Assembly (NCBI GenBank): GCA_964534045.1
Contig: CAZHNO010000003.1
Coordinates: forward strand, 37,323 to 101,322
Source: an uncultured archaeon
GTDB lineage: Archaea; Iainarchaeota; Iainarchaeia; Iainarchaeales; JAAZKV01
DNA: 64,000 nt
Direction of reading: 5' to 3'
Every line of letters begins with the position of its first letter. Positions within the stretch are counted from its first letter, which is position 1. A model generated the notes under the pieces. That model saw only the letters and a program-made list of their open reading frames with translations. It was not told the origin of the DNA and did not search any database. A program made the translations under genes and the position numbers. This document shows positions 1,366 to 30,033 of this stretch, in pieces.

Positions 1366-1516
1366 GCGTCCGTGATGTAATGGTAGCATAAAAGCCTTCC
1401 AGAGCCTTGTTAAGGCTCGCGAAAGAATTTGCCTATTGACAAGCAATAGGTAGAAAGCGAGTTTAAACAATTGCTGATGTTAGCTTTTTGTCGGGGTTCA
1501 AATCCCCGCGGGCGCA
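1366..1516 (+). tRNA. tRNA-Gly(TCC) with 80-nt intron at 37/38 (intron 1402-1481)
   Basis: Acceptor GCGTCCG/CGGGCGC+A, D-arm ATGT-AATGGT-AGCAT, anticodon stem AAAGC/GCTTT with CT-TCC-A^A, T-arm CGGGG-TTCAAAT-CCCCG; junctions form a bulge-helix-bulge with one U-U mismatch. Confidence 0.93.
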
Positions 1517-5594: not shown

Positions 5595-6986
5595 ATGTTT
5601 GGATTACTTAAAAAAAAACTAAGCAATTTCGGAGAAAGACTAAAACATAATTTAGATAAGAAAGAAATTGAAAAAGAAACAAAAACTAAAGAAAATGAAA
5701 TCTCTTCTGAAGAAATTACCCCTAAAAAAGAAATTATTTTAGAAAAAGAACCAATACTTGAGAAAGAATTTATTTCAAAAGAAAAAGAGTTGCCAAAAAA
5801 AACTATTTCTAAAGAAGATCAAGTTTTTGAAGAAATAAAAAAAGAAATTGAAAAAGAAGATGCTTCTTTACTTGAAGAAACCCCTAGTGAAAAAGAGATT
5901 GAAGAAGAATTTCAAAAATATGCAACCGAAGAAAAAAATAAAGAAAAAGAAATTCCAATTGACGAAAATATCGATGATGAATTTGAAAAAGAAATTTCTA
6001 AAGAAGAAAGTGGGGAAGATTTAGAAAAAAATTTGGTTGAGCAAGTAATTGAAAGAGAAAAAATTGAAATAAAAAAAGTTGATGAAGATAAAAGGGAATT
6101 AAAAGCAAAAATAGGCGCCGGTGGAAAAATAAAAGGTTTCTTTTCTGGAAAAGTTGAAATAAAAGAAAATGATATTGAAACATTAATTTGGGAATTAGAA
6201 TTAAGTTTAATTGAAAGTGATGTTGAACAAGATACTGCAAGAGAAATAACTCAACAAATAAAAAAAAGGATGGTGGGACAAAAAATTGCTTTAAAAAATT
6301 TAAATGATTTTTTGAAACAACAAATAAAAGAAATATTAAGCGAAATGATGAAAACAGAAAAAATAAATGTTTTAGAAGAAATAAAGAAAAATGAAAAACC
6401 TTATACAATATTATTAATTGGGCCAAATGGCGCTGGAAAAACAACATCTATTGCAAAACTAACACAATACTTTAAAAAAAATAAATTGAGCTGTGTATGG
6501 GCGGCTGCTGATACTTTTAGAAGTGGAGCAATAGATCAATTACAAGAGCATGCTGATAAACTAGAAACTAAAATTATTAAACAACAATATGGAGCTGATC
6601 CTGCTGCTGTTGCTTTTGATGCAATAAAAAGTGCAAAAGCCAATGGAAATGATGTTGTGTTAATTGACTCTGCAGGAAGACAAGAAACAAACAAAAACTT
6701 AATGGAAGAATTAAAAAAAATTGAAAGAGTTGCAAAACCTAATTTAAAAATTTATGTTGGGGAAGCATACACTGGACAAGGATTATTAGATATGGCAAAA
6801 GAATTTGATGAAATGATTGGAATTGATGGTTTTATTCTAACAAAAATTGATACTGATGCGAAGGGTGGAACAACAATTTCTCTACTTTACAAATTGAAAA
6901 AGCCAATTATTTTCATTGGAACTGGACAGAATTATGAAGATTTTGAAGAATTTGATAGTGAATTTATCCTAAATAGGATAATTTAA
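5595..6986 (+). CDS. ftsY: SRP receptor FtsY with long acidic N-terminal region
   Basis: GPNGAGKTTSIAK, DTFRSGAIDQL, DSAGRQ, TKIDTDAKGG SRP-GTPase motifs. Confidence 0.97.
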   Translation: MFGLLKKKLSNFGERLKHNLDKKEIEKETKTKENEISSEEITPKKEIILEKEPILEKEFISKEKELPKKTISKEDQVFEEIKKEIEKEDASLLEETPSEKEIEEEFQKYATEEKNKEKEIPIDENIDDEFEKEISKEESGEDLEKNLVEQVIEREKIEIKKVDEDKRELKAKIGAGGKIKGFFSGKVEIKENDIETLIWELELSLIESDVEQDTAREITQQIKKRMVGQKIALKNLNDFLKQQIKEILSEMMKTEKINVLEEIKKNEKPYTILLIGPNGAGKTTSIAKLTQYFKKNKLSCVWAAADTFRSGAIDQLQEHADKLETKIIKQQYGADPAAVAFDAIKSAKANGNDVVLIDSAGRQETNKNLMEELKKIERVAKPNLKIYVGEAYTGQGLLDMAKEFDEMIGIDGFILTKIDTDAKGGTTISLLYKLKKPIIFIGTGQNYEDFEEFDSEFILNRII

Positions 6987-9113: not shown

Positions 9114-9185
9114 TGTTAAACCCCCAGAATTGTTATAATAATTACAATTTAAATGCTTAAAATACTTTTGCAACGAGACATTATT

Positions 9186-10532
9186 ATGCTTGGAGAAAAA
9201 TTACGAAAGGCAATGGACAAAATATCTGGGGCTGGAGCAGTAGATGAAAATGTTGTAAAAGAAGCAATAAAAGAAATACAACGTGCACTAATCAGTTCAA
9301 ATGTAGAAATTAATACAGTGCTAGCTATTTCTAAAAGAATTGAAGAAAAAGCATTCAAAAAAGCCGAAGGGAAAATGAGTCAAAGAGAACATGTTACAAA
9401 AGTAATTTATGACGAACTTGTAAATATGATGGGTGGAAAAGAAGCACCTAAAGAACCAAAAAGAATTTTATTATGCGGTCTGTTTGGTGTTGGAAAAACA
9501 ACTGCGGCTGGGAAACTCGGAACTTGGTATAAAAAAAGAGGAAAAAAAGTTGGAATAATTGCTGCTGACACTTTTAGGCCAGCGGCTTATGAACAATTAG
9601 AAACAAATGCAAAACAAGCGGGTGTTGATTTTTTTGGAATAAAAAAAGAAAAAAATGCTGCAAAAATTGTGAAAGAAGGAATAAAAAAATTTGAAAAATA
9701 TGATTTGATAATTTGTGATAGTGCCGGAAGATCAGGGCTAGATAATGAACTTGTTAAAGAAATAAAAGAAATTGATGATGCTTTCAAAGGAGAAGAAAAA
9801 TGGTTAGTACTTGGGGCCGATATTGGAAATCTAGCAAAAAAACAAGCACAAGCATTTCACAAAGCCGTTGGAATTAATGGAGTAATAATAACAAAAATGG
9901 ACGGTTCAAGCAAAGGTGGAGGCGCATTAGTTGCATGTAATGAAACAAATTCAAGCGTTTATTTTATTTCAACTGGAGAAAAAATTGGTGACTTTGAAGA
10001 GTTTGATGCAAATAGATATTTAGGAAGAATAATGGGCTATGGTGATTTAGAAACATTATTAGAAAAGGCAAAAGAAATTGAAATGGAAAACATTTCACCA
10101 GAAGAATTAATGAAAGGAAATATTAATTTTAAAATATTTTATGAACAATTAAAAGCCACAAAAAAATTAGGACCACTAAATAAAGTTGTTGATATGCTCG
10201 GGCTTGGAATGAAAATGCCAAAAGAAGCAATGGAAATGGGACAAGAAAAAATGGATTCTTTCAAAATAATAATTGATTCTATGACAGAAAAAGAAAGGTT
10301 GGAGCCAGATTTATTGAACAGGGGAAGGATAGAAAGAATTGCAAAAGGTTCAGGAAAAAGTGTTGAAGATGTTAGGGAATTAATAAAACAATTTAAGAAA
10401 ATGAAAAAAATGTTTAAAAGATTTAAAGGCATGGGCGAAAAAGGAATGCAAAAAATGGGTGAAAAGGATTTAGGAAAAATGATGCAACAAATGCAAGGAC
10501 AAAAGGCAAAGAAAAAATTTAGGTTGAAATAA
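9186..10532 (+). CDS. srp54: Signal recognition particle protein SRP54
   Basis: GLFGVGKTT, DTFRPAAYEQL, DSAGR, TKMDGSSKGGGAL, Met-rich M domain with RIAKGSG. Confidence 0.97.
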   Translation: MLGEKLRKAMDKISGAGAVDENVVKEAIKEIQRALISSNVEINTVLAISKRIEEKAFKKAEGKMSQREHVTKVIYDELVNMMGGKEAPKEPKRILLCGLFGVGKTTAAGKLGTWYKKRGKKVGIIAADTFRPAAYEQLETNAKQAGVDFFGIKKEKNAAKIVKEGIKKFEKYDLIICDSAGRSGLDNELVKEIKEIDDAFKGEEKWLVLGADIGNLAKKQAQAFHKAVGINGVIITKMDGSSKGGGALVACNETNSSVYFISTGEKIGDFEEFDANRYLGRIMGYGDLETLLEKAKEIEMENISPEELMKGNINFKIFYEQLKATKKLGPLNKVVDMLGLGMKMPKEAMEMGQEKMDSFKIIIDSMTEKERLEPDLLNRGRIERIAKGSGKSVEDVRELIKQFKKMKKMFKRFKGMGEKGMQKMGEKDLGKMMQQMQGQKAKKKFRLK

Positions 10533-22146: not shown

Positions 22147-23475
22147 ATGGAAATTACACTTACTGAAATTAACAAAAATGAGCTACAAAAATTAAATGAT
22201 TTCTTAGAAAATAATGAATTAAATGTTCAAGAGTTTAATGAACTGACAAAAACAATTAACTTTTCTTTTTCTGTAGAAAATTGTTCACGACTTTTAAGTC
22301 ACCACATCTGTGAATCTTTGGATTCATACACTCAACAAAGTCAAAGATATGTAAAAATGGGCAATGAAGCATTTGTAATTCCAAAAGAAATTGAAAAAAG
22401 TGATTTGAAAGAGGAGTATGAAAAATTAAATTTGGATTTATTTAAATTCTATAATAAAATAACTCAAATAAAAGAGGGATTTGCTGGAAGGAAAGCAAGT
22501 GAACAAGATTATGTTTATGGAATAAAAATAGAAGATGGAAGGTATGTTCTTCCATTAGCAACAAAAACCAACATAATAGTAACAATGAACCTATCAAAAA
22601 CAATTAACTTTTTCAATACAATAAAAAAAGCAAAAATAAATGAAGGCGAAGAGTTACTTGAAAAAATAAAAGAACTTCTTGGGAAAAATATTAGCAAATT
22701 TATTGAAAAAAATTTAAGTGAATTTGATTCTGGCAAAGTGAATGATTTTGTTCAAGAATATTTTAACAAAATTGATTCGAAAAACAATTGCGCTTTGTTA
22801 AACAAATTTGAAGAGCCATTAATTAGAAGTGGTTTGGGAGCATTAACGTCAACAAATGAAATTGGGGCGTCAAAAATAAAAGAAAAATGGGATGAAAAAA
22901 ATGAAGCCATTGAAAAAGCAAAGGCTGTTACTGAAAGAGTAATTGGCTATGGACACACATCCATAATTGAGCACGCGAGGACTAATTTTGGAATGCAAAT
23001 GTCATTAACTTGTTATCACCAATTTGAAAGACATAGACTACCAAACAATATTAGAGAAGAGTTTTCAAACTTACCTTTAGACAGAGAAGTAATTATGCCC
23101 CCCAGTGTTGAAAAAAATCAAGAAATTAACAAAGAATTCATGGAAAAAGTCCAAATGGTAAAAGAATTTAGAAAAAAAATGAATGAAAAGAATTTGCCTC
23201 AAGAATATTTGCTACTGAATTGTGATATTTTGAAATTGATTAGTTCAACAAATGCTAGAATTGATAACGAAATTTTGGCAGAAAGAACATGTAATAATGC
23301 TCAATGGGAAATAAGAGATTTATACACAAAAAAATTAGAACAATTACAAAAAACAGCCAAAGTATTATATGATAAAGCTGGGCCACCATGCACAAAAGGC
23401 ACTTGCCCTGAAGGCGCACTAAGTTGTGGAAAAATAATTGAAGTTAGAAAAAAATTTGGTTACTTTGGAAAATAA
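22147..23475 (+). CDS. thyX: FAD-dependent thymidylate synthase, tandem two-domain form
   Basis: N-domain SRLLSHH...SYTQQSQRYV and EDGRYVLPLATKT; C-domain GHTSIIEH, HQFERHR, RTCNNAQWEIR, GPPC..G.CPEG..SCG. Confidence 0.85.
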   Translation: MEITLTEINKNELQKLNDFLENNELNVQEFNELTKTINFSFSVENCSRLLSHHICESLDSYTQQSQRYVKMGNEAFVIPKEIEKSDLKEEYEKLNLDLFKFYNKITQIKEGFAGRKASEQDYVYGIKIEDGRYVLPLATKTNIIVTMNLSKTINFFNTIKKAKINEGEELLEKIKELLGKNISKFIEKNLSEFDSGKVNDFVQEYFNKIDSKNNCALLNKFEEPLIRSGLGALTSTNEIGASKIKEKWDEKNEAIEKAKAVTERVIGYGHTSIIEHARTNFGMQMSLTCYHQFERHRLPNNIREEFSNLPLDREVIMPPSVEKNQEINKEFMEKVQMVKEFRKKMNEKNLPQEYLLLNCDILKLISSTNARIDNEILAERTCNNAQWEIRDLYTKKLEQLQKTAKVLYDKAGPPCTKGTCPEGALSCGKIIEVRKKFGYFGK

Positions 23476-25211: not shown

Positions 25212-25847
25212 ATGAATGGCTTCAAATTAACAAAAAAAATTGGTGAAGTTGAATTATGGAAGCATCCGGCTGGACACAAATTTATTCGATTTAGTGATTC
25301 CTCTCTTAGTGGAAAAGAAATTCCTCATCCAAAAAAAATACCACAAATTGATTATCCTGGAGTAAATTTTGTTACAACACTTGAAACAGAAGTCAGTGGT
25401 AAAAAGCAACAAATTTGGGCAAAAGAAGTTGGCGGAAAAGCAGATGATATATTAAAAATATTTTTTACAAACCCAAAAAATCGTTATAGAAAAAATACAC
25501 ACCATGCAAGAACATTGCGACAAATTAGGGCAGCTGGTTTTCAAGCACCAGAACCACTAGGAATATTATATCCGGCTAGCGGAAAACCACTAATGCTAAC
25601 AACACACATAAATGGAAGTCCTTGTGAAGATAGAATAGAAAGAAGGCTACTTGTTGCCCAATTAAAATTAGCAGGATTACACCCATCAGATTTCCACAAA
25701 AAAAATATTTTCAAAACAGAAAAAGGTTTAGCAATAATTGATGCATCAAGGTTTGGGCCAGTAAACAAAGAAAAATTACTTGCGACAATAAAAAGACAAA
25801 AGCAAATACAACAACAAAAACTAGCAAAAAAAAGAAAATTACTTTAA
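25212..25847 (+). CDS. Protein kinase-like (RIO/Kdo/APH-like) hypothetical protein
   Basis: IWAKE, HPSDFHKKNIF (catalytic loop), AIIDAS (Mg-binding) motifs; basic C-terminus. Confidence 0.65.
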   Translation: MNGFKLTKKIGEVELWKHPAGHKFIRFSDSSLSGKEIPHPKKIPQIDYPGVNFVTTLETEVSGKKQQIWAKEVGGKADDILKIFFTNPKNRYRKNTHHARTLRQIRAAGFQAPEPLGILYPASGKPLMLTTHINGSPCEDRIERRLLVAQLKLAGLHPSDFHKKNIFKTEKGLAIIDASRFGPVNKEKLLATIKRQKQIQQQKLAKKRKLL

Positions 25848-26966
25848 CAAATAATCTTTTTCAAACTCTTTTTTGAATTTTATGAAATTGTTTTCTTGAA
25901 TTGCTTTTCTAGAATTTTTTATTAAATTTTGAATAAAATAAATATTGTGATAAGAAAGCAAAATGTGTGCATTCTGTTCATAAGTTTTGAACAAATGGTG
26001 TAAATATGCGCGAGAATGATTTTTGCAAACAAAACAATCACATTCTTTATCAAGTGAAGAAAAATCTTCTTTGTTTTTTGCATTAGCAATTTCTATTGCT
26101 CCGCTAGAAGTAAAAACTTTTCCATGGCGAGCCATTCTGGTTGGATATGCTGAATCAAAACAATCAGCCCCTTGTTCAATTGCTGAAAGGATTTCTAATG
26201 GCGAACCAATACCCATTACATACGTTGGATTATTTTCTGGCAAAACTTCCTTTACAGCTTTAATTATTCTAATCATATCTTCTTGCGCTTCGCCAATACC
26301 AAAACCACCCAATGCAACACCATCAAAACCAATTTTTGTTAAAGCAAGAGCACAATTCTGCCTAATGTCAGCATGATTTCCACCTTGTGCAATACCAAAA
26401 ATTAATTGCTTTGAATTGGTTTTATTTTTACTAGAATCATGTGTGTTTTTACATCTTTGAGCCCATTCAATAGTGCGAATTGCTGAATCTAAATAATCAT
26501 TTCTGTTTTTTCCAAATAAAGGTTGGTGGTCAAGACACATTGCAACATCTGAACCCAAAACATTTTGTATTTCAATAGCTTTTTCGGGAGTAATTAATTC
26601 TTGTGATTTATCAAATGGATTTTTCAAATAAACTCCTTTATCTGTTACTCTTGGAGAAAAATGATCAAGTATTAATTGAAAACCACCCGAGTCAGTAAAA
26701 AGCGCTTTATCCCAAGACATAAAACTATGTAAGCCACCTGCTTTTTCTATTACTTGTAAACCTGGCTTTAAATAATTAATAAAAGCATTAGAAATCAAAC
26801 AATCAAAACCCATTTCTTTCAATTCTGAATTAAGAATATTTTTTACTGCACCCTTGGTTGCAACTGGCATAAAAAAAGGAGTTTTTATTTCCCCATGTGC
26901 TGTTTTTAAAATTCCTGTGCGTGCGGAGCAACTAGAATCTTTATGTTTAATTTCAAAACAAGACAT
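25839..26966 (-). CDS. tgt: tRNA-guanine transglycosylase, bacterial (queuine-pathway) type
   Basis: TPFFMPVAT, TDSGGFQ, GIAQGG, GG.G.GE, YVMGIG, FDS..PTR.AR, CDCFVC..HSRAYLHHL Zn site. Confidence 0.95.
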   Translation of the reverse strand: MSCFEIKHKDSSCSARTGILKTAHGEIKTPFFMPVATKGAVKNILNSELKEMGFDCLISNAFINYLKPGLQVIEKAGGLHSFMSWDKALFTDSGGFQLILDHFSPRVTDKGVYLKNPFDKSQELITPEKAIEIQNVLGSDVAMCLDHQPLFGKNRNDYLDSAIRTIEWAQRCKNTHDSSKNKTNSKQLIFGIAQGGNHADIRQNCALALTKIGFDGVALGGFGIGEAQEDMIRIIKAVKEVLPENNPTYVMGIGSPLEILSAIEQGADCFDSAYPTRMARHGKVFTSSGAIEIANAKNKEDFSSLDKECDCFVCKNHSRAYLHHLFKTYEQNAHILLSYHNIYFIQNLIKNSRKAIQENNFIKFKKEFEKDYLLK

Positions 26967-27091
26967 ATAATAAATTATCAAAAAAAGAATTTAAAAAAGC
27001 AAGTTAGCTTTCTGGTTATTGAAAATAGCCAAATTCTTCGTATCAGCCAAGTGAAATTGGCTTTTTAAAAGGTTTTGACTAGAAATTATTT

Positions 27092-27359
27092 TGGACTAGA
27101 CTGGGCCGCCAGCGGTGGCTTGTTACCAGAAATCCGCTTTATGCTGGAGTCGAAGCTGAAGAAGAGGTTTTAATGCTAATGCATTTCGCCAAAGGCAAAT
27201 GTCGAAGCTCTGTCCTTACAGGCCCTTTTATGAAACGAACCCCGCCAGACTCGGAAGAGAGCAACGGTAATTTTATTAGAGAGCGCTGAAGGGTAACGGA
27301 GTGGAGTTTGTGTTTGGAAAGAGTGCACTAACTAGAAATCCATTCTTCAGCACGTCCAC
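27092..27359 (+). ncRNA. ffs: Signal recognition particle RNA (7S), about 268 nt
   Basis: Helix 1 TGGAC/GTCCA; Alu domain GACT/AGTC with UGU motif and AGCGG/CCGCT loop-loop complement; helix 5 CTGAAGAA/TTCTTCAG; helix 8 CCCGCCAG-ACTC-GGAA-GAG-AGCAACGG. Confidence 0.93.
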
Positions 27360-27447
27360 TTGATGTGGTGCTATTACAAATAGCACTTAACCACGTTTCG
27401 GAACCGCCCTACGAAATGGGCGAATCCATTCTTCAGTGTGTCCACTT
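27337..27447 (+). repeat. Direct repeat of the SRP RNA 3' end (25 nt, 22/25 identical)
   Basis: AATCCATTCTTCAGCACGTCCACTT (27337-27361) vs AATCCATTCTTCAGTGTGTCCACTT (27423-27447). Confidence 0.9.
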
Positions 27448-27680
27448 ATTGTAGTTGAACTATTTTCTGGTACATTAGCACAAGATAACAAATACGCACG
27501 CTTAGGGATTATCAATTGGAAAACTTCTCATTGGGCTACCAACGGTGCCCTCCGGCGCCGCCTCACGGAAGGGGCGAGAGAAAGGTTTTTATATCATTAA
27601 AACGTTGATTCTTGCAAGTAATCTTAAAATAAGCAAGTGGCTTATTTTATTAAAAAAATGGATTTAATGGAGGATTATCA

Positions 27681-27863
27681 ATGGTTTTCGAAAAGAAAAT
27701 GTCTGTAAAAGATCTTATTGAACAAATGCGACAAGAATTACAGAGAGATAGGTCAACACCAGCAAAAAAAGGTGCAAAAGCAAAATCTGTAAAAAAGGCT
27801 ACAAAAAAGAAGCCTGCTAAAAAAAAGGCAAAAAAAGCTGTGAAGAAAAAAAAGAAAATTTAA
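27681..27863 (+). CDS. Small protein with histone H1-like Lys/Ala/Pro tail
   Basis: GGAGG RBS; helical N-half then TPAKKGAKAKSVKKATKKKPAKKKAKKAVKKKKKI. Confidence 0.75.
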   Translation: MVFEKKMSVKDLIEQMRQELQRDRSTPAKKGAKAKSVKKATKKKPAKKKAKKAVKKKKKI

Positions 27864-27867
27864 AAAA

Positions 27868-28173
27868 TTATTTAGAAGTGCTCTTTTGCACTTCTTTTTC
27901 CAATTTCTTCAACACATCCTGAACAGTTTCAATTAACTGCCAATTGGTTTCGGACGCAACAAACACTTTGTTATTCAATAATAACTTCGCTTTGACTTCA
28001 TGCTGCTTTCTAAGCCCACCTTTAGCATATTCTTTAACTGATAAAGTAAGCTTGTCTGCCCCTAACAAAGGCACTTTTGAAAAAAATCTCTCAAAATTCT
28101 TTACAAAAATTGCATTATCTATCTCATCTACTTTCGGAAACTTGATTAACTCTAAATTAGAAAAACGCTCCAA
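27868..28173 (-). CDS. HPF/RaiA-like ribosome hibernation factor (putative)
   Basis: TTG start with GGGGGAG RBS; beta-alpha-beta-beta-beta-alpha pattern ending FVASETNWQLIETVQDVLKKLEKEV, as in HPF-like modules; judged by eye. Confidence 0.65.
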   Translation of the reverse strand: MERFSNLELIKFPKVDEIDNAIFVKNFERFFSKVPLLGADKLTLSVKEYAKGGLRKQHEVKAKLLLNNKVFVASETNWQLIETVQDVLKKLEKEVQKSTSK

Positions 28174-28242: not shown

Positions 28243-30033
28243 ATGTCTAACCTAGTTTTAAATGATGAAACTCTTGAGAGTGAAAAAAAAATTAAAAAAG
28301 CATTTGAAATAATTCAAAAAAGTGGTGAAAAAGAAATACTTTTACGGGCAAAGAGAATTTTGCTTGTTTTAAACAAAAAAAATATGGGTGCAACAACCAC
28401 TATTTCTGCAATACTTTACCCCCTAGTTGAAAAACAAAAAATTAGTCTTGAAGAAATAAATAATACATTTGGACAAGAAGTAATGTTAATCGCAAAAGAA
28501 TGTGTTAGAATAGAAGAAATTCTAAATGCAAATTACAAAAAAATACCCCCTGAAACTTTAAGTGCATTAATACTCTCAATTTCAACCGATTTAAGAACAA
28601 TAATTATTAAGATTGCTGATATTACAGATCAATTAAAAAATAATTCTAGTATTGATAAAAATAAATTTATTTTTTTTGCAAAAAATATATATTCCCCACT
28701 AACTGCAAAGCTAGGAATTTCTGATCTTGGCTGGCAAATTGCGGATTATTGTTTCAAACTAGAAAACCCACAAGGATATGAAAAAATAAAAAAATTGGTA
28801 AATAAAACTCGAGAAGAAAGAGAAAAACTAATTGAAGATATAAGAATTGAAATAGAAAAATTTTTGAGTGGAAAAATAAAAGTACATGTTTTTGGGCGCC
28901 CAAAAAACTTTTACTCAATTCATGAAAAATTAAAAAAAGTATCTTTCAAAGAAATGCATGACATTTATGGAATAAGAATAATTTGCAACAAAGAAAGAGA
29001 ATGCTATGAAATTTTAGGAAATATACATTCAAAATATAATTTCATTCCAAGCGCATTTGATGATTATATTGCCAAAGAAGGAAAGGGGCTTGGGAAAAAA
29101 GGCTATCAAAGCATACACACTGCAATAATAAGAAATAATGACGTTATTGAAATACAAATAAGAACTTGGCAACAACACCTAAAAACAGAATCTAGTATTT
29201 ACTGGGAATATAAAAGATTACGAAAAGATACTACTCTTGACAAATCACTAAGTTGGGAAAGGCAATTGGTGGAGTGGCAAAAAAGTATTGGGGAAGAAAA
29301 TAAAAACAAAAAAATAATTAGTGGAAAATTATTTGTTTTCACTCCAAAAAATGAAGTCATTACTCTTCCAAATAATTCAAGCGCGCTCGATTTTGCGTTT
29401 GCTGTTCATTCAGATATTGGAAAAAGAGTAAAACAAGCAAAAATTAATGGTGAACTAGTTCCAATAGAAACTAAATTAAAAAACTTGGACAAAGTTGAAA
29501 TAATTACTGATCAAAAAACAAAAATCAGGCCAGATTGGTTGAATATGGTGGTTAGTGAAAGAGCAAAAACAAAAATCAAAAGACACTTTGGATTAAAAAG
29601 TGCAATTGTAAAAAAGCAACATGCATCAGAACAAATTACAAAAAAAATAAAACTTGCTGAATGCTGTCATCCTCTGCCAGGGGAAGATGTAATTGGAATA
29701 AAAACCACTAAAAGAAAAATAATAATTCATAAACGAGATTGTAAAAACATAGCAAACATTTCTAAAAATAAAAAAATAGAAATATATTTTGAAAAGGAAA
29801 GAGGAAAAACAAAAATTAAAGTTTTGGCAATTGATAGAATTGGTTTACTGGCTGAAATTCTTGAAGAAATAAAAAGAAATAAAGCAACATTAAGTTCAAC
29901 AAACTTTAATATAAAAAAATCTGGGTATGTTGAAGCAATATTTGAACTTGAAATAAAAAATATAAATGCGCTTGAGAGATTAATTAATAACTTAGAACAA
30001 ATTCCATCAATACAAAGCGTTGATAGGGAGTAA
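28243..30033 (+). CDS. rsh: Long RelA/SpoT homolog (degenerate HD, synthetase, TGS, ZFD, ACT)
   Basis: GRPKNFYSIHEK, DIYGIR, DYIAK...GYQSIHT, EIQIRT, FVFTPKNEVITLP...DFAFAVHSDIG, AECCHPLPGEDVIG, C-terminal ACT (AIDRIGLLAEI). Confidence 0.95.
   Translation: MSNLVLNDETLESEKKIKKAFEIIQKSGEKEILLRAKRILLVLNKKNMGATTTISAILYPLVEKQKISLEEINNTFGQEVMLIAKECVRIEEILNANYKKIPPETLSALILSISTDLRTIIIKIADITDQLKNNSSIDKNKFIFFAKNIYSPLTAKLGISDLGWQIADYCFKLENPQGYEKIKKLVNKTREEREKLIEDIRIEIEKFLSGKIKVHVFGRPKNFYSIHEKLKKVSFKEMHDIYGIRIICNKERECYEILGNIHSKYNFIPSAFDDYIAKEGKGLGKKGYQSIHTAIIRNNDVIEIQIRTWQQHLKTESSIYWEYKRLRKDTTLDKSLSWERQLVEWQKSIGEENKNKKIISGKLFVFTPKNEVITLPNNSSALDFAFAVHSDIGKRVKQAKINGELVPIETKLKNLDKVEIITDQKTKIRPDWLNMVVSERAKTKIKRHFGLKSAIVKKQHASEQITKKIKLAECCHPLPGEDVIGIKTTKRKIIIHKRDCKNIANISKNKKIEIYFEKERGKTKIKVLAIDRIGLLAEILEEIKRNKATLSSTNFNIKKSGYVEAIFELEIKNINALERLINNLEQIPSIQSVDRE

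Follow-up and report, generated by a model that had tools for sequence, protein, structure and literature searches.

A signal recognition particle RNA without helix 6 in a lineage of Iainarchaeota

Introduction

SRP19 and helix 6 of the SRP RNA are textbook features that separate the archaeal and eukaryotic signal recognition particle (SRP) from the bacterial SRP. In standard SRP RNA nomenclature, helix 6 lies after the 5′ strand of helix 5 and before helix 8. In canonical archaeal SRP RNA, helix 6 comprises about 40 nt, carries a GNAR tetraloop, and is a partner in the helix 6/8 'adenosine clamp'; it is the primary binding site of SRP19. The internal loops and tetraloop of helix 8, in turn, bind the M domain of SRP54/Ffh and engage the receptor complex. 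The need for SRP19 in archaea has long been debated, and SRP54 binds the RNA without SRP19 in vitro.

A 2010 review reports that archaeal SRP RNA binds SRP54 even without SRP19, that SRP19 'may be defunct' in archaea, and that SRP19 and helix 6 coexist in all archaeal subgroups then known (PMC2905702). The lineage-specific departures from the standard archaeal plan that have been described include a circularly permuted SRP RNA in Thermoproteus (PMC4731332) and eroded Alu domains in the SRP RNAs of Desulfurococcales and Nitrosopumilus (PMC2905702). The SRP19 family PF01922 is listed as a universally missing CheckM marker in 152 Woesearchaeota genomes (PMC8421398) and in Parvarchaeales and Jingweiarchaeales (PMC10134863). 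Neither of these two papers ties the absence of PF01922 to SRP RNA, and in the library searched for archaeal SRP RNAs lacking helix 6 and for SRP19 in DPANN, no paper describes such an RNA or connects the two.

Here we describe an SRP RNA gene in a 64-kb stretch of DNA (hereafter the window, whose coordinates are used throughout). An initial annotation of the window had proposed that its SRP RNA lacks helix 6, resembles the long bacterial SRP RNAs, and assembles independently of SRP19.

Results

The SRP RNA of the window matches the archaeal model with helix 6 skipped

A whole-window Rfam scan reveals a single SRP RNA (7S RNA) gene, located at 27089–27361 on the plus strand and 273 nt long; a scan of the sub-region gave the same result. 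The RNA matches Archaea_SRP (RF01857) from model position 1 to model position 317, with a score of 137.7 bits (E 2.5e-31; gathering score 96.5), and in clan competition RF01857 is the best-scoring member of the SRP clan, CL00003. The G+C content is 47% in the SRP RNA and 29.6% across the window. The Alu domain, both strands of helix 5, and helix 8, all of which the initial annotation had read as clear, are aligned by cmscan with high posterior probability.

The full 317-position model fits into 273 nt because Infernal skips the 40 positions of helix 6. Specifically, the alignment contains a local end between 27228 and 27229, at which 40 consensus positions of the model are passed over and 0 nt of sequence are inserted: the 5′ strand of helix 5, ending in GGCCCUUU, stops at 27228, and helix 8, beginning with UAUGAAAC, starts at 27229. 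The minimum-free-energy fold of the 273 nt is one unbranched rod (−90.1 kcal/mol, z = −3.0). In the comparative structure described below, the site of helix 6 is reduced to a 1 × 1 U·U mismatch of 27229 opposite 27277. Neither the alignment nor the folds contain, between helix 5 and helix 8, the helix 6 hairpin with a GNAR tetraloop that belongs to RF01857. The local end at 27228/27229, together with the unbranched fold, therefore establishes that the observed loss of helix 6 is correct; the Infernal alignment that had been suggested as a check does not place a normal helix 6 in the RNA, and the absence of a GNAR tetraloop hairpin was rightly noted.

The helix-6-less form is conserved across a broad Iainarchaeota lineage

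To gather relatives, we searched a metagenome collection for a 23-nt stretch of Alu-domain helix 4, a pattern that is blind to helix 6. The scan returned 70 loci, among them about 50 bacterial long SRP RNAs (identifiable by the helix 8 sequence CAGGUCCGGAAGGAAGCAGC; the 6 scanned with Rfam are all RF01854) and 15 archaeal-type loci (identifiable by GCCAG..GGAA..AGCAACGG in helix 8). The archaeal-type loci comprise 12 that are full-length and distinct, one, L066, that is identical to L048, and two, L058 and L069, that are truncated. Rfam typing of the 13 full-length loci found with the pattern assigned all of them to RF01857, with the complete 1–317 model accommodated in 270–277 nt; across the relatives, L002 (below) included, the scores are 116–152 bits. 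Every full-length archaeal-type SRP RNA is 270–277 nt long, and in every archaeal-type sequence helix 8 lies at the helix-6-less distance from the Alu motif. A Tgt search in GTDB genomes yielded two Iainarchaeum loci, L001 and L002, one of which ends before the RNA; L002, from a Ca. Iainarchaeum MAG with a Tgt that is 69% identical, carries a syntenic SRP RNA with the same 40-to-0 skip.

The archaeal-type loci originate from about 12–13 independent metagenome assemblies and one named Ca. Iainarchaeum genome (MAG). Their RNAs are 57–85% identical to the RNA of the window, their G+C contents range from 26% to 50%, and they have a gene order in common, radA–tgt–SRP RNA–small basic ORF–HPF-like–relA/spoT; they therefore represent one broad lineage and not one strain. 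The helix-6-less form is conserved across this broad Iainarchaeota lineage, with compensatory changes. In principle, the genome could hold, outside the window, another SRP RNA gene of the canonical kind whose Alu sequence differs.

Many bacterial large SRP RNAs carry exactly the 23-nt Alu segment of the Iainarchaeota RNAs, ACCNGAAATCCGCTTTATGCNGG, a striking match across domains. In a separate search for other DPANN SRP RNAs, the archaeal helix 8 pattern applied to viral contigs returned only phage or bacterial 4.5S-like hairpins. In particular, the viral-classed loci L080, L082, and L084 (IMG/VR contigs of 101–194 kb), L079, and L081 carry short 4.5S-like SRP RNA hairpins that match RF00169 with 40–72 bits, and those of L080, L082, and L084 are embedded in large tRNA gene arrays. 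These hairpins may be fragments of host origin or SRP RNA mimics encoded by phages.

Covariation supports a continuous rod from helix 5 into helix 8

We aligned 14 full-length sequences (alignment A1), derived the consensus structure with RNAalifold, and counted pairs with shuffle and slide controls. The consensus is an unbranched rod like the fold of the window RNA, with 78 pairs, 54 of which (54/78) show compensatory changes on both sides. Paired cells make up 92.3% in A1 versus 75.7% in column shuffles, and 0 of 500 shuffles reach the alignment on any of five measures. The register test shows a sharp peak at slide 0, with 92% of cells paired versus 39–49% when the 3′ partners are slid.

The Alu (small) domain occupies 27089–27151 and comprises the 5′ half of helix 1 (GGAC, 27093–27096), helices 2, 3, and 4, and the UGUUAC motif. 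Helices 1–4 of A1, which correspond to this domain in the cmscan alignment and of which helix 1 joins the 5′ and 3′ ends, are 98–100% paired and covary. The 5′ strand of helix 5 occupies 27155–27221 (A1 helices 5–10); its 3′ strand, together with the 3′ half of helix 1 (GUCC, 27353–27356), occupies 27285–27361, as defined by the cmscan alignment, the A1 consensus, and covariation.

In place of the helix 5/6/8 three-way junction, at the cmscan local end, the structure has a junction stem, in which 27222–27235 on the 5′ side pair with 27271–27284 on the 3′ side (A1 helix 11; columns 137–150 with columns 186–199). Each of the 12 pairs of this stem (12/12) shows changes in both partners, and the stem as a whole has 94.6% of cells paired. 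Helix 5 runs straight into helix 8, and this continuity is supported by covariation.

The apical part of helix 8 (27236–27270) contains the GGAA tetraloop (27253–27256) and the internal loops to which the M domain of SRP54 binds; helix 8 of the window RNA reads CCGCCAGACUCGGAAGAGAGCAACGG. The helix 8 internal loops and tetraloop are invariant in the 14 sequences (columns GAAC.CCGCCAG, GGAA, and AGCAACGGUA), and the pairs of the apical stem covary (3/3).

One detail of the initial annotation did not survive the alignment, namely a CCT-TAC-AGG stub (27214–27222) that might remain between helix 5 and helix 8. Read as a hairpin, this segment shows no covariation and is broken in the 2 sequences in which it varies. 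We rejected CCU-UAC-AGG as a vestigial helix 6, since its bases have their partners in the 3′ strand of helix 5, where pairing is backed by covariation: CCUU (27214–27217) pairs with AGGG (27290–27293), and A1 pairs 131–206 and 132–205 change from U-A to C-G. Because CCU-UAC-AGG covaries when paired long-range, it is part of helix 5.

The RNA is represented in RNA libraries

A TATA-like box, TTTTTAAAA, is located at 27062–27070 on the plus strand, ∼20–27 nt 5′ of the RNA start, and is, from its sequence, a probable archaeal promoter. The relatives have A/T-rich TATA-like boxes with the same spacing to the 5′ end of the SRP RNA.

Metatranscriptome contigs from four runs fall on 27132–27337, 27128–27288, and 27121–27277; they are 157–206 nt long, cross the junction with 0 gaps, and give zero coverage outside the SRP RNA gene. 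These are assembled contigs of close relatives (95–99% identical), for which DNA carry-over is possible. The DNA runs containing the stretch are wastewater and landfill metagenomes. The helix-6-less SRP RNA is real and appears to be expressed, with expression read from the assembled contigs of relatives and subject to the same possible carry-over. Covariance-model alignment, fold, covariation, and RNA-derived contigs thus bear out the SRP RNA without helix 6 that had been proposed for the window.

These data bear on whether the short form could be an assembly artefact or a decaying pseudogene copy. That the window is metagenome-derived is the one point in favour of such an origin. About 13 independent assemblies contain the same form, as does an NCBI MAG; every helix is maintained by compensatory changes, the TATA-like box is conserved upstream, and the RNA-library contigs match the form without gaps; we regard an artefact or pseudogene as effectively excluded.

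Downstream of the gene, the last ∼24 nt of the SRP RNA (27338–27361, ATCCATTCTTCAGCACGTCCAC) are repeated with 3 mismatches, 62 nt downstream, at 27425–27446. Next to the second copy comes the flank CTTATTGTA, which in L021 and other relatives adjoins their only 3′ end, and two hairpins lie between the copies (GGTGCTATT..AATAGCAC and CGTTTCG..CGAAATG). The duplication is also present in the close relative L010 (downstream of L010:9065–9339, minus strand) and is absent from 13 other loci. The segment 27362–27450 looks like a small insertion, or like an integration scar with duplication of the 3′ end.

The host and the protein partner are archaeal

The window encodes RadA, SRP54, FtsY, a class III signal peptide protein, a geranylgeranyl reductase, and an intron-containing tRNA, which mark it as archaeal. 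SRP54 is encoded at 9153–10532 on the plus strand, with N, G, and M domains of archaeal type (Pfam SRP54_N, SRP54, and SRP_SPB); the public gene call, of 448 aa, uses a downstream start. FtsY, the SRP receptor, is encoded at 5595–6986 on the plus strand, has a long N-terminal extension, and matches Pfam SRP54_N and SRP54 and, with 297.8 bits and above the cut-off, NCBIfam TIGR00064 (ftsY). The closest homologues of SRP54 are 74–84% identical and are named Candidatus Iainarchaeum sp. or Diapherotrites archaeon. Judged from the closest homologues of its markers SRP54 and Tgt, the window is of Iainarchaeota/Diapherotrites (DPANN) origin.

Compared with solved structures, the SRP54 of the window scores 355 bits against Pyrococcus furiosus 3DM5, 321 bits against M. 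jannaschii 3NDB/2V3C, and about 305 bits against S. solfataricus 1QZW, versus 260 bits against the best bacterial Ffh structure. The NCBIfam ffh and SRP54_euk models are both below their cut-offs on this protein and do not help to type it. The predicted SRP54 partner is, by the comparison with structures, archaeal-type and not Ffh.

The only serious rival to archaeal descent is horizontal transfer of a bacterial long (Bacillus-type) SRP RNA, in which helix 6 was never there. The architecture of the RNA is identical to that of the bacterial large SRP RNA, and its 23-nt Alu motif is exactly common to about 50 bacterial long SRP RNA loci (among L011–L078); nevertheless, clan competition keeps Archaea_SRP in 15/15 full-length members despite the 40-position skip penalty, whereas the 6 bacterial loci scanned from that pattern search are all placed in RF01854, and helix 8 has GCCAG...AGCAACGG and not the bacterial GUCAGGUCCGGAAGGAAGCAGC. 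Transfer would also fit the bacterial-type neighbours (Tgt passing TIGR00430, RelA/SpoT, and an HPF-like protein), but the partner encoded in the window is an archaeal SRP54 and not Ffh. Finally, the S domain alone passes the bacterial 4.5S model: the isolated segment 27207–27305 aligns with positions 1–97 of Bacteria_small_SRP (RF00169) end to end, with 44.1 bits and above the gathering score, in a sub-region test that is biased against the long archaeal model. We consider horizontal transfer distinctly unlikely. The end-to-end alignment with RF00169 means that the large domain is, in its architecture, a 4.5S-like hairpin on an archaeal Alu/helix 5 scaffold. The likeness to the helix-6-less long bacterial SRP RNAs put forward in the initial annotation thus holds for architecture and fails for kind, since the RNA is archaeal, and not bacterial, by Rfam and by its SRP54 partner.

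Searches for SRP19

The presence of srp54 and ftsY near the SRP RNA gene, and the absence of srp19 from the window, agree with the Pfam matches given above and with a null result for an SRP19 profile in six frames. Specifically, we built an SRP19 HMM from 120 SRP19 proteins taken from the protein search described below, checked the M. jannaschii SRP19 sequence against PDB 1LNG, and ran the HMM with all filters off on the window and 84 loci, 501 kb altogether, translated in six frames. It found no SRP19 in the window (best E about 7) or in the 84 loci (best E 0.16, at a bacterial-type locus), a scope in which the 64-kb window represents roughly 5% of a genome and the loci of the relatives represent short flanks of SRP RNA genes. 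PF01922 has no match among ten small ORFs of the window. The 101-aa ORF at 27868–28173 on the minus strand was considered as a divergent SRP19 and rejected, as it has no match to the SRP19 HMM and has a weak match to Ribosomal_S30AE/HPF.

A protein search with M. jannaschii, A. fulgidus, and human SRP19 as seeds gave 363 candidates, none of them named Iainarchaeum or Diapherotrites; this is weak evidence, because the search reached only close relatives of the seeds, namely Methanococci, Archaeoglobi, and vertebrates, and therefore says nothing about DPANN.

An SRP19 could be retained elsewhere in the genome and could join the particle, for example through the helix 8 tetraloop only, or have another role. 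The absence of SRP19 is seen for 64 kb of the genome and short flanks in relatives, and divergent DPANN SRP19s lie beyond the reach of a word-indexed search limited to close relatives of its seeds. On the other side, helix 6, the primary SRP19 site, is gone; every archaeal group covered by the 2010 survey has both SRP19 and helix 6 (PMC2905702), PF01922 is reported to be missing from other DPANN lineages (PMC8421398, PMC10134863), and the candidate list, for the little that it weighs, contains no named Iainarchaeum or Diapherotrites SRP19. A retained SRP19 seems very unlikely to us.

Genes around the SRP RNA and elsewhere in the window

Bacterial-type genes flank the SRP RNA and are conserved across the lineage: a queuine tRNA-ribosyltransferase, Tgt (25839–26981, minus strand), which passes the bacterial equivalog TIGR00430; the 101-aa protein (27868–28173, minus strand), whose weak match (Ribosomal_S30AE, E 0.005) is to a ribosome hibernation factor; and a long RelA/SpoT protein (28243–30033, plus strand) with HD, synthetase, TGS, and ACT domains. 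The Tgt/HPF-like/RelA-SpoT cluster suggests a (p)ppGpp/hibernation module.

A 60-aa ORF (27681–27863, plus strand) lies directly downstream of the SRP RNA in 10/15 lineages (the window and L002, L009, L021, L026, L044, L045, L060, L069, and L076). Its product has a conserved N-terminus, MVFEKKMSVKDLIEQMRQEL, and a Lys/Ala/Pro-rich tail, and matches no Pfam family; the ORF has a TATA-like box of its own, AAAGGTTTTTATA, at about 27580–27592. The product may be a small nucleic-acid-binding protein and, more speculatively, this lysine-rich protein could be a lineage-specific RNA-binding subunit. Within the A+T-rich intergenic region, a G+C-rich patch, GGGCTACCAACGGTGCCCTCCGGCGCCGCCTCACGGAAGGGGCGAGAG, is present at 27520–27580 on the plus strand; Rfam gives no match to this patch at E ≤ 10, the relatives show no obvious equivalent, and it may be a small structured RNA or a remnant.

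Farther from the SRP RNA, a 151-nt tRNA gene (1366–1516, plus strand) scores 49.5 bits with Rfam, was missed by ARAGORN, and presumably carries an archaeal intron of about 80 nt. A ThyX-like protein (22147–23475, plus strand; 442 aa) has two Thy1 stretches and is about twice the usual length; its gene has dCMP deaminase, thymidylate kinase, and SHMT genes as neighbours.

Discussion

The explanation that we favour, and consider probable as a whole, is that the window encodes a functional SRP RNA of archaeal descent from which helix 6 has been cleanly excised, and that this RNA forms an SRP19-independent particle. Excision would leave both strands of helix 5 continuing, through a 12-bp covarying stem, directly into helix 8. 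Since helix 5 is continuous with helix 8, the S domain forms one hairpin, as bacterial 4.5S RNA does, with the Alu domain and the long helix 5 kept. In keeping with established SRP biochemistry, SRP54 would bind the conserved loops of helix 8 on its own, in the way that Ffh binds 4.5S RNA and that archaeal SRP54 can achieve in vitro when SRP19 is missing. Helix 5 and the GGAA tetraloop would retain their part in FtsY docking and GTPase activation. SRP19, having no helix 6 to bind, would no longer take part in the particle, and its gene has probably disappeared from the genome. From the invariant helix 8 elements, taken together with the published statements that archaeal SRP RNA binds SRP54 even without SRP19 and that SRP19 'may be defunct' (PMC2905702), we infer SRP19-independent assembly of a two-component core of SRP54 and RNA.

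The helix-6-less SRP RNA reveals no new mechanism. It does provide a natural experiment: an archaeal lineage that lacks the docking helix of SRP19, but keeps the rest of the RNA and an archaeal SRP54, would show that SRP19 is not always needed. Loss of helix 6 also offers a structural explanation for the unexplained absence of PF01922 from DPANN genomes. In practical terms, completeness estimates that count SRP19 would wrongly penalise such genomes, and the helix-6-less RNA would be a minimal archaeal SRP for biochemistry and structural work.

Because SRP19 is reported missing in Woesearchaeota and in Parvarchaeales/Jingweiarchaeales, one can ask whether loss of helix 6 and SRP19 is a trait shared by much of DPANN, reached either by repeated convergent reversion to a bacterial-like two-component core or because helix 6 and SRP19 are a later addition. 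We regard this extension as speculative and rather unlikely. If it is true, and if DPANN branch deep, helix 6 and SRP19 would be a later addition and not ancestral to Archaea.

Among known systems, canonical archaeal SRP RNA (RF01857; Methanocaldococcus jannaschii 7S RNA, PDB 1LNG/2V3C) is the best-scoring Rfam family for the RNA described here. The two have in common the end closure by helix 1, Alu helices 2–4 with the UGUNR motif, a long helix 5, conserved internal loops and a GGAA tetraloop in helix 8, and SRP54 of archaeal type as the partner. They differ in that the RNA of the window is without helix 6 and has a continuous covarying stem in place of the three-way junction.

With the bacterial large SRP RNA (RF01854; Bacillus subtilis scRNA type), the RNA shares an Alu domain, helix 5, and helix 8 without helix 6, a length of about 270 nt, the identical 23-nt segment of helix 4, and, presumably, assembly of the particle without SRP19. 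Unlike the bacterial large SRP RNA, it scores better at full length as archaeal in clan competition, has an archaeal-like helix 8 signature, and is accompanied by an archaeal-type SRP54 instead of Ffh. With bacterial 4.5S RNA (RF00169), it shares a single hairpin with M-domain-binding loops and a GNRA tetraloop; in contrast to 4.5S RNA, this hairpin makes up no more than the distal portion of a 273-nt molecule in which the Alu domain is retained.

Like the SRP RNAs of Thermoproteus, Desulfurococcales, and Nitrosopumilus, the RNA of the window is a lineage-specific departure from the standard archaeal plan. In those three, the change affects gene order or the small domain, and helix 6 and SRP19 are retained, whereas the RNA of the window has a collinear gene and an intact Alu domain and is reduced in its large domain.
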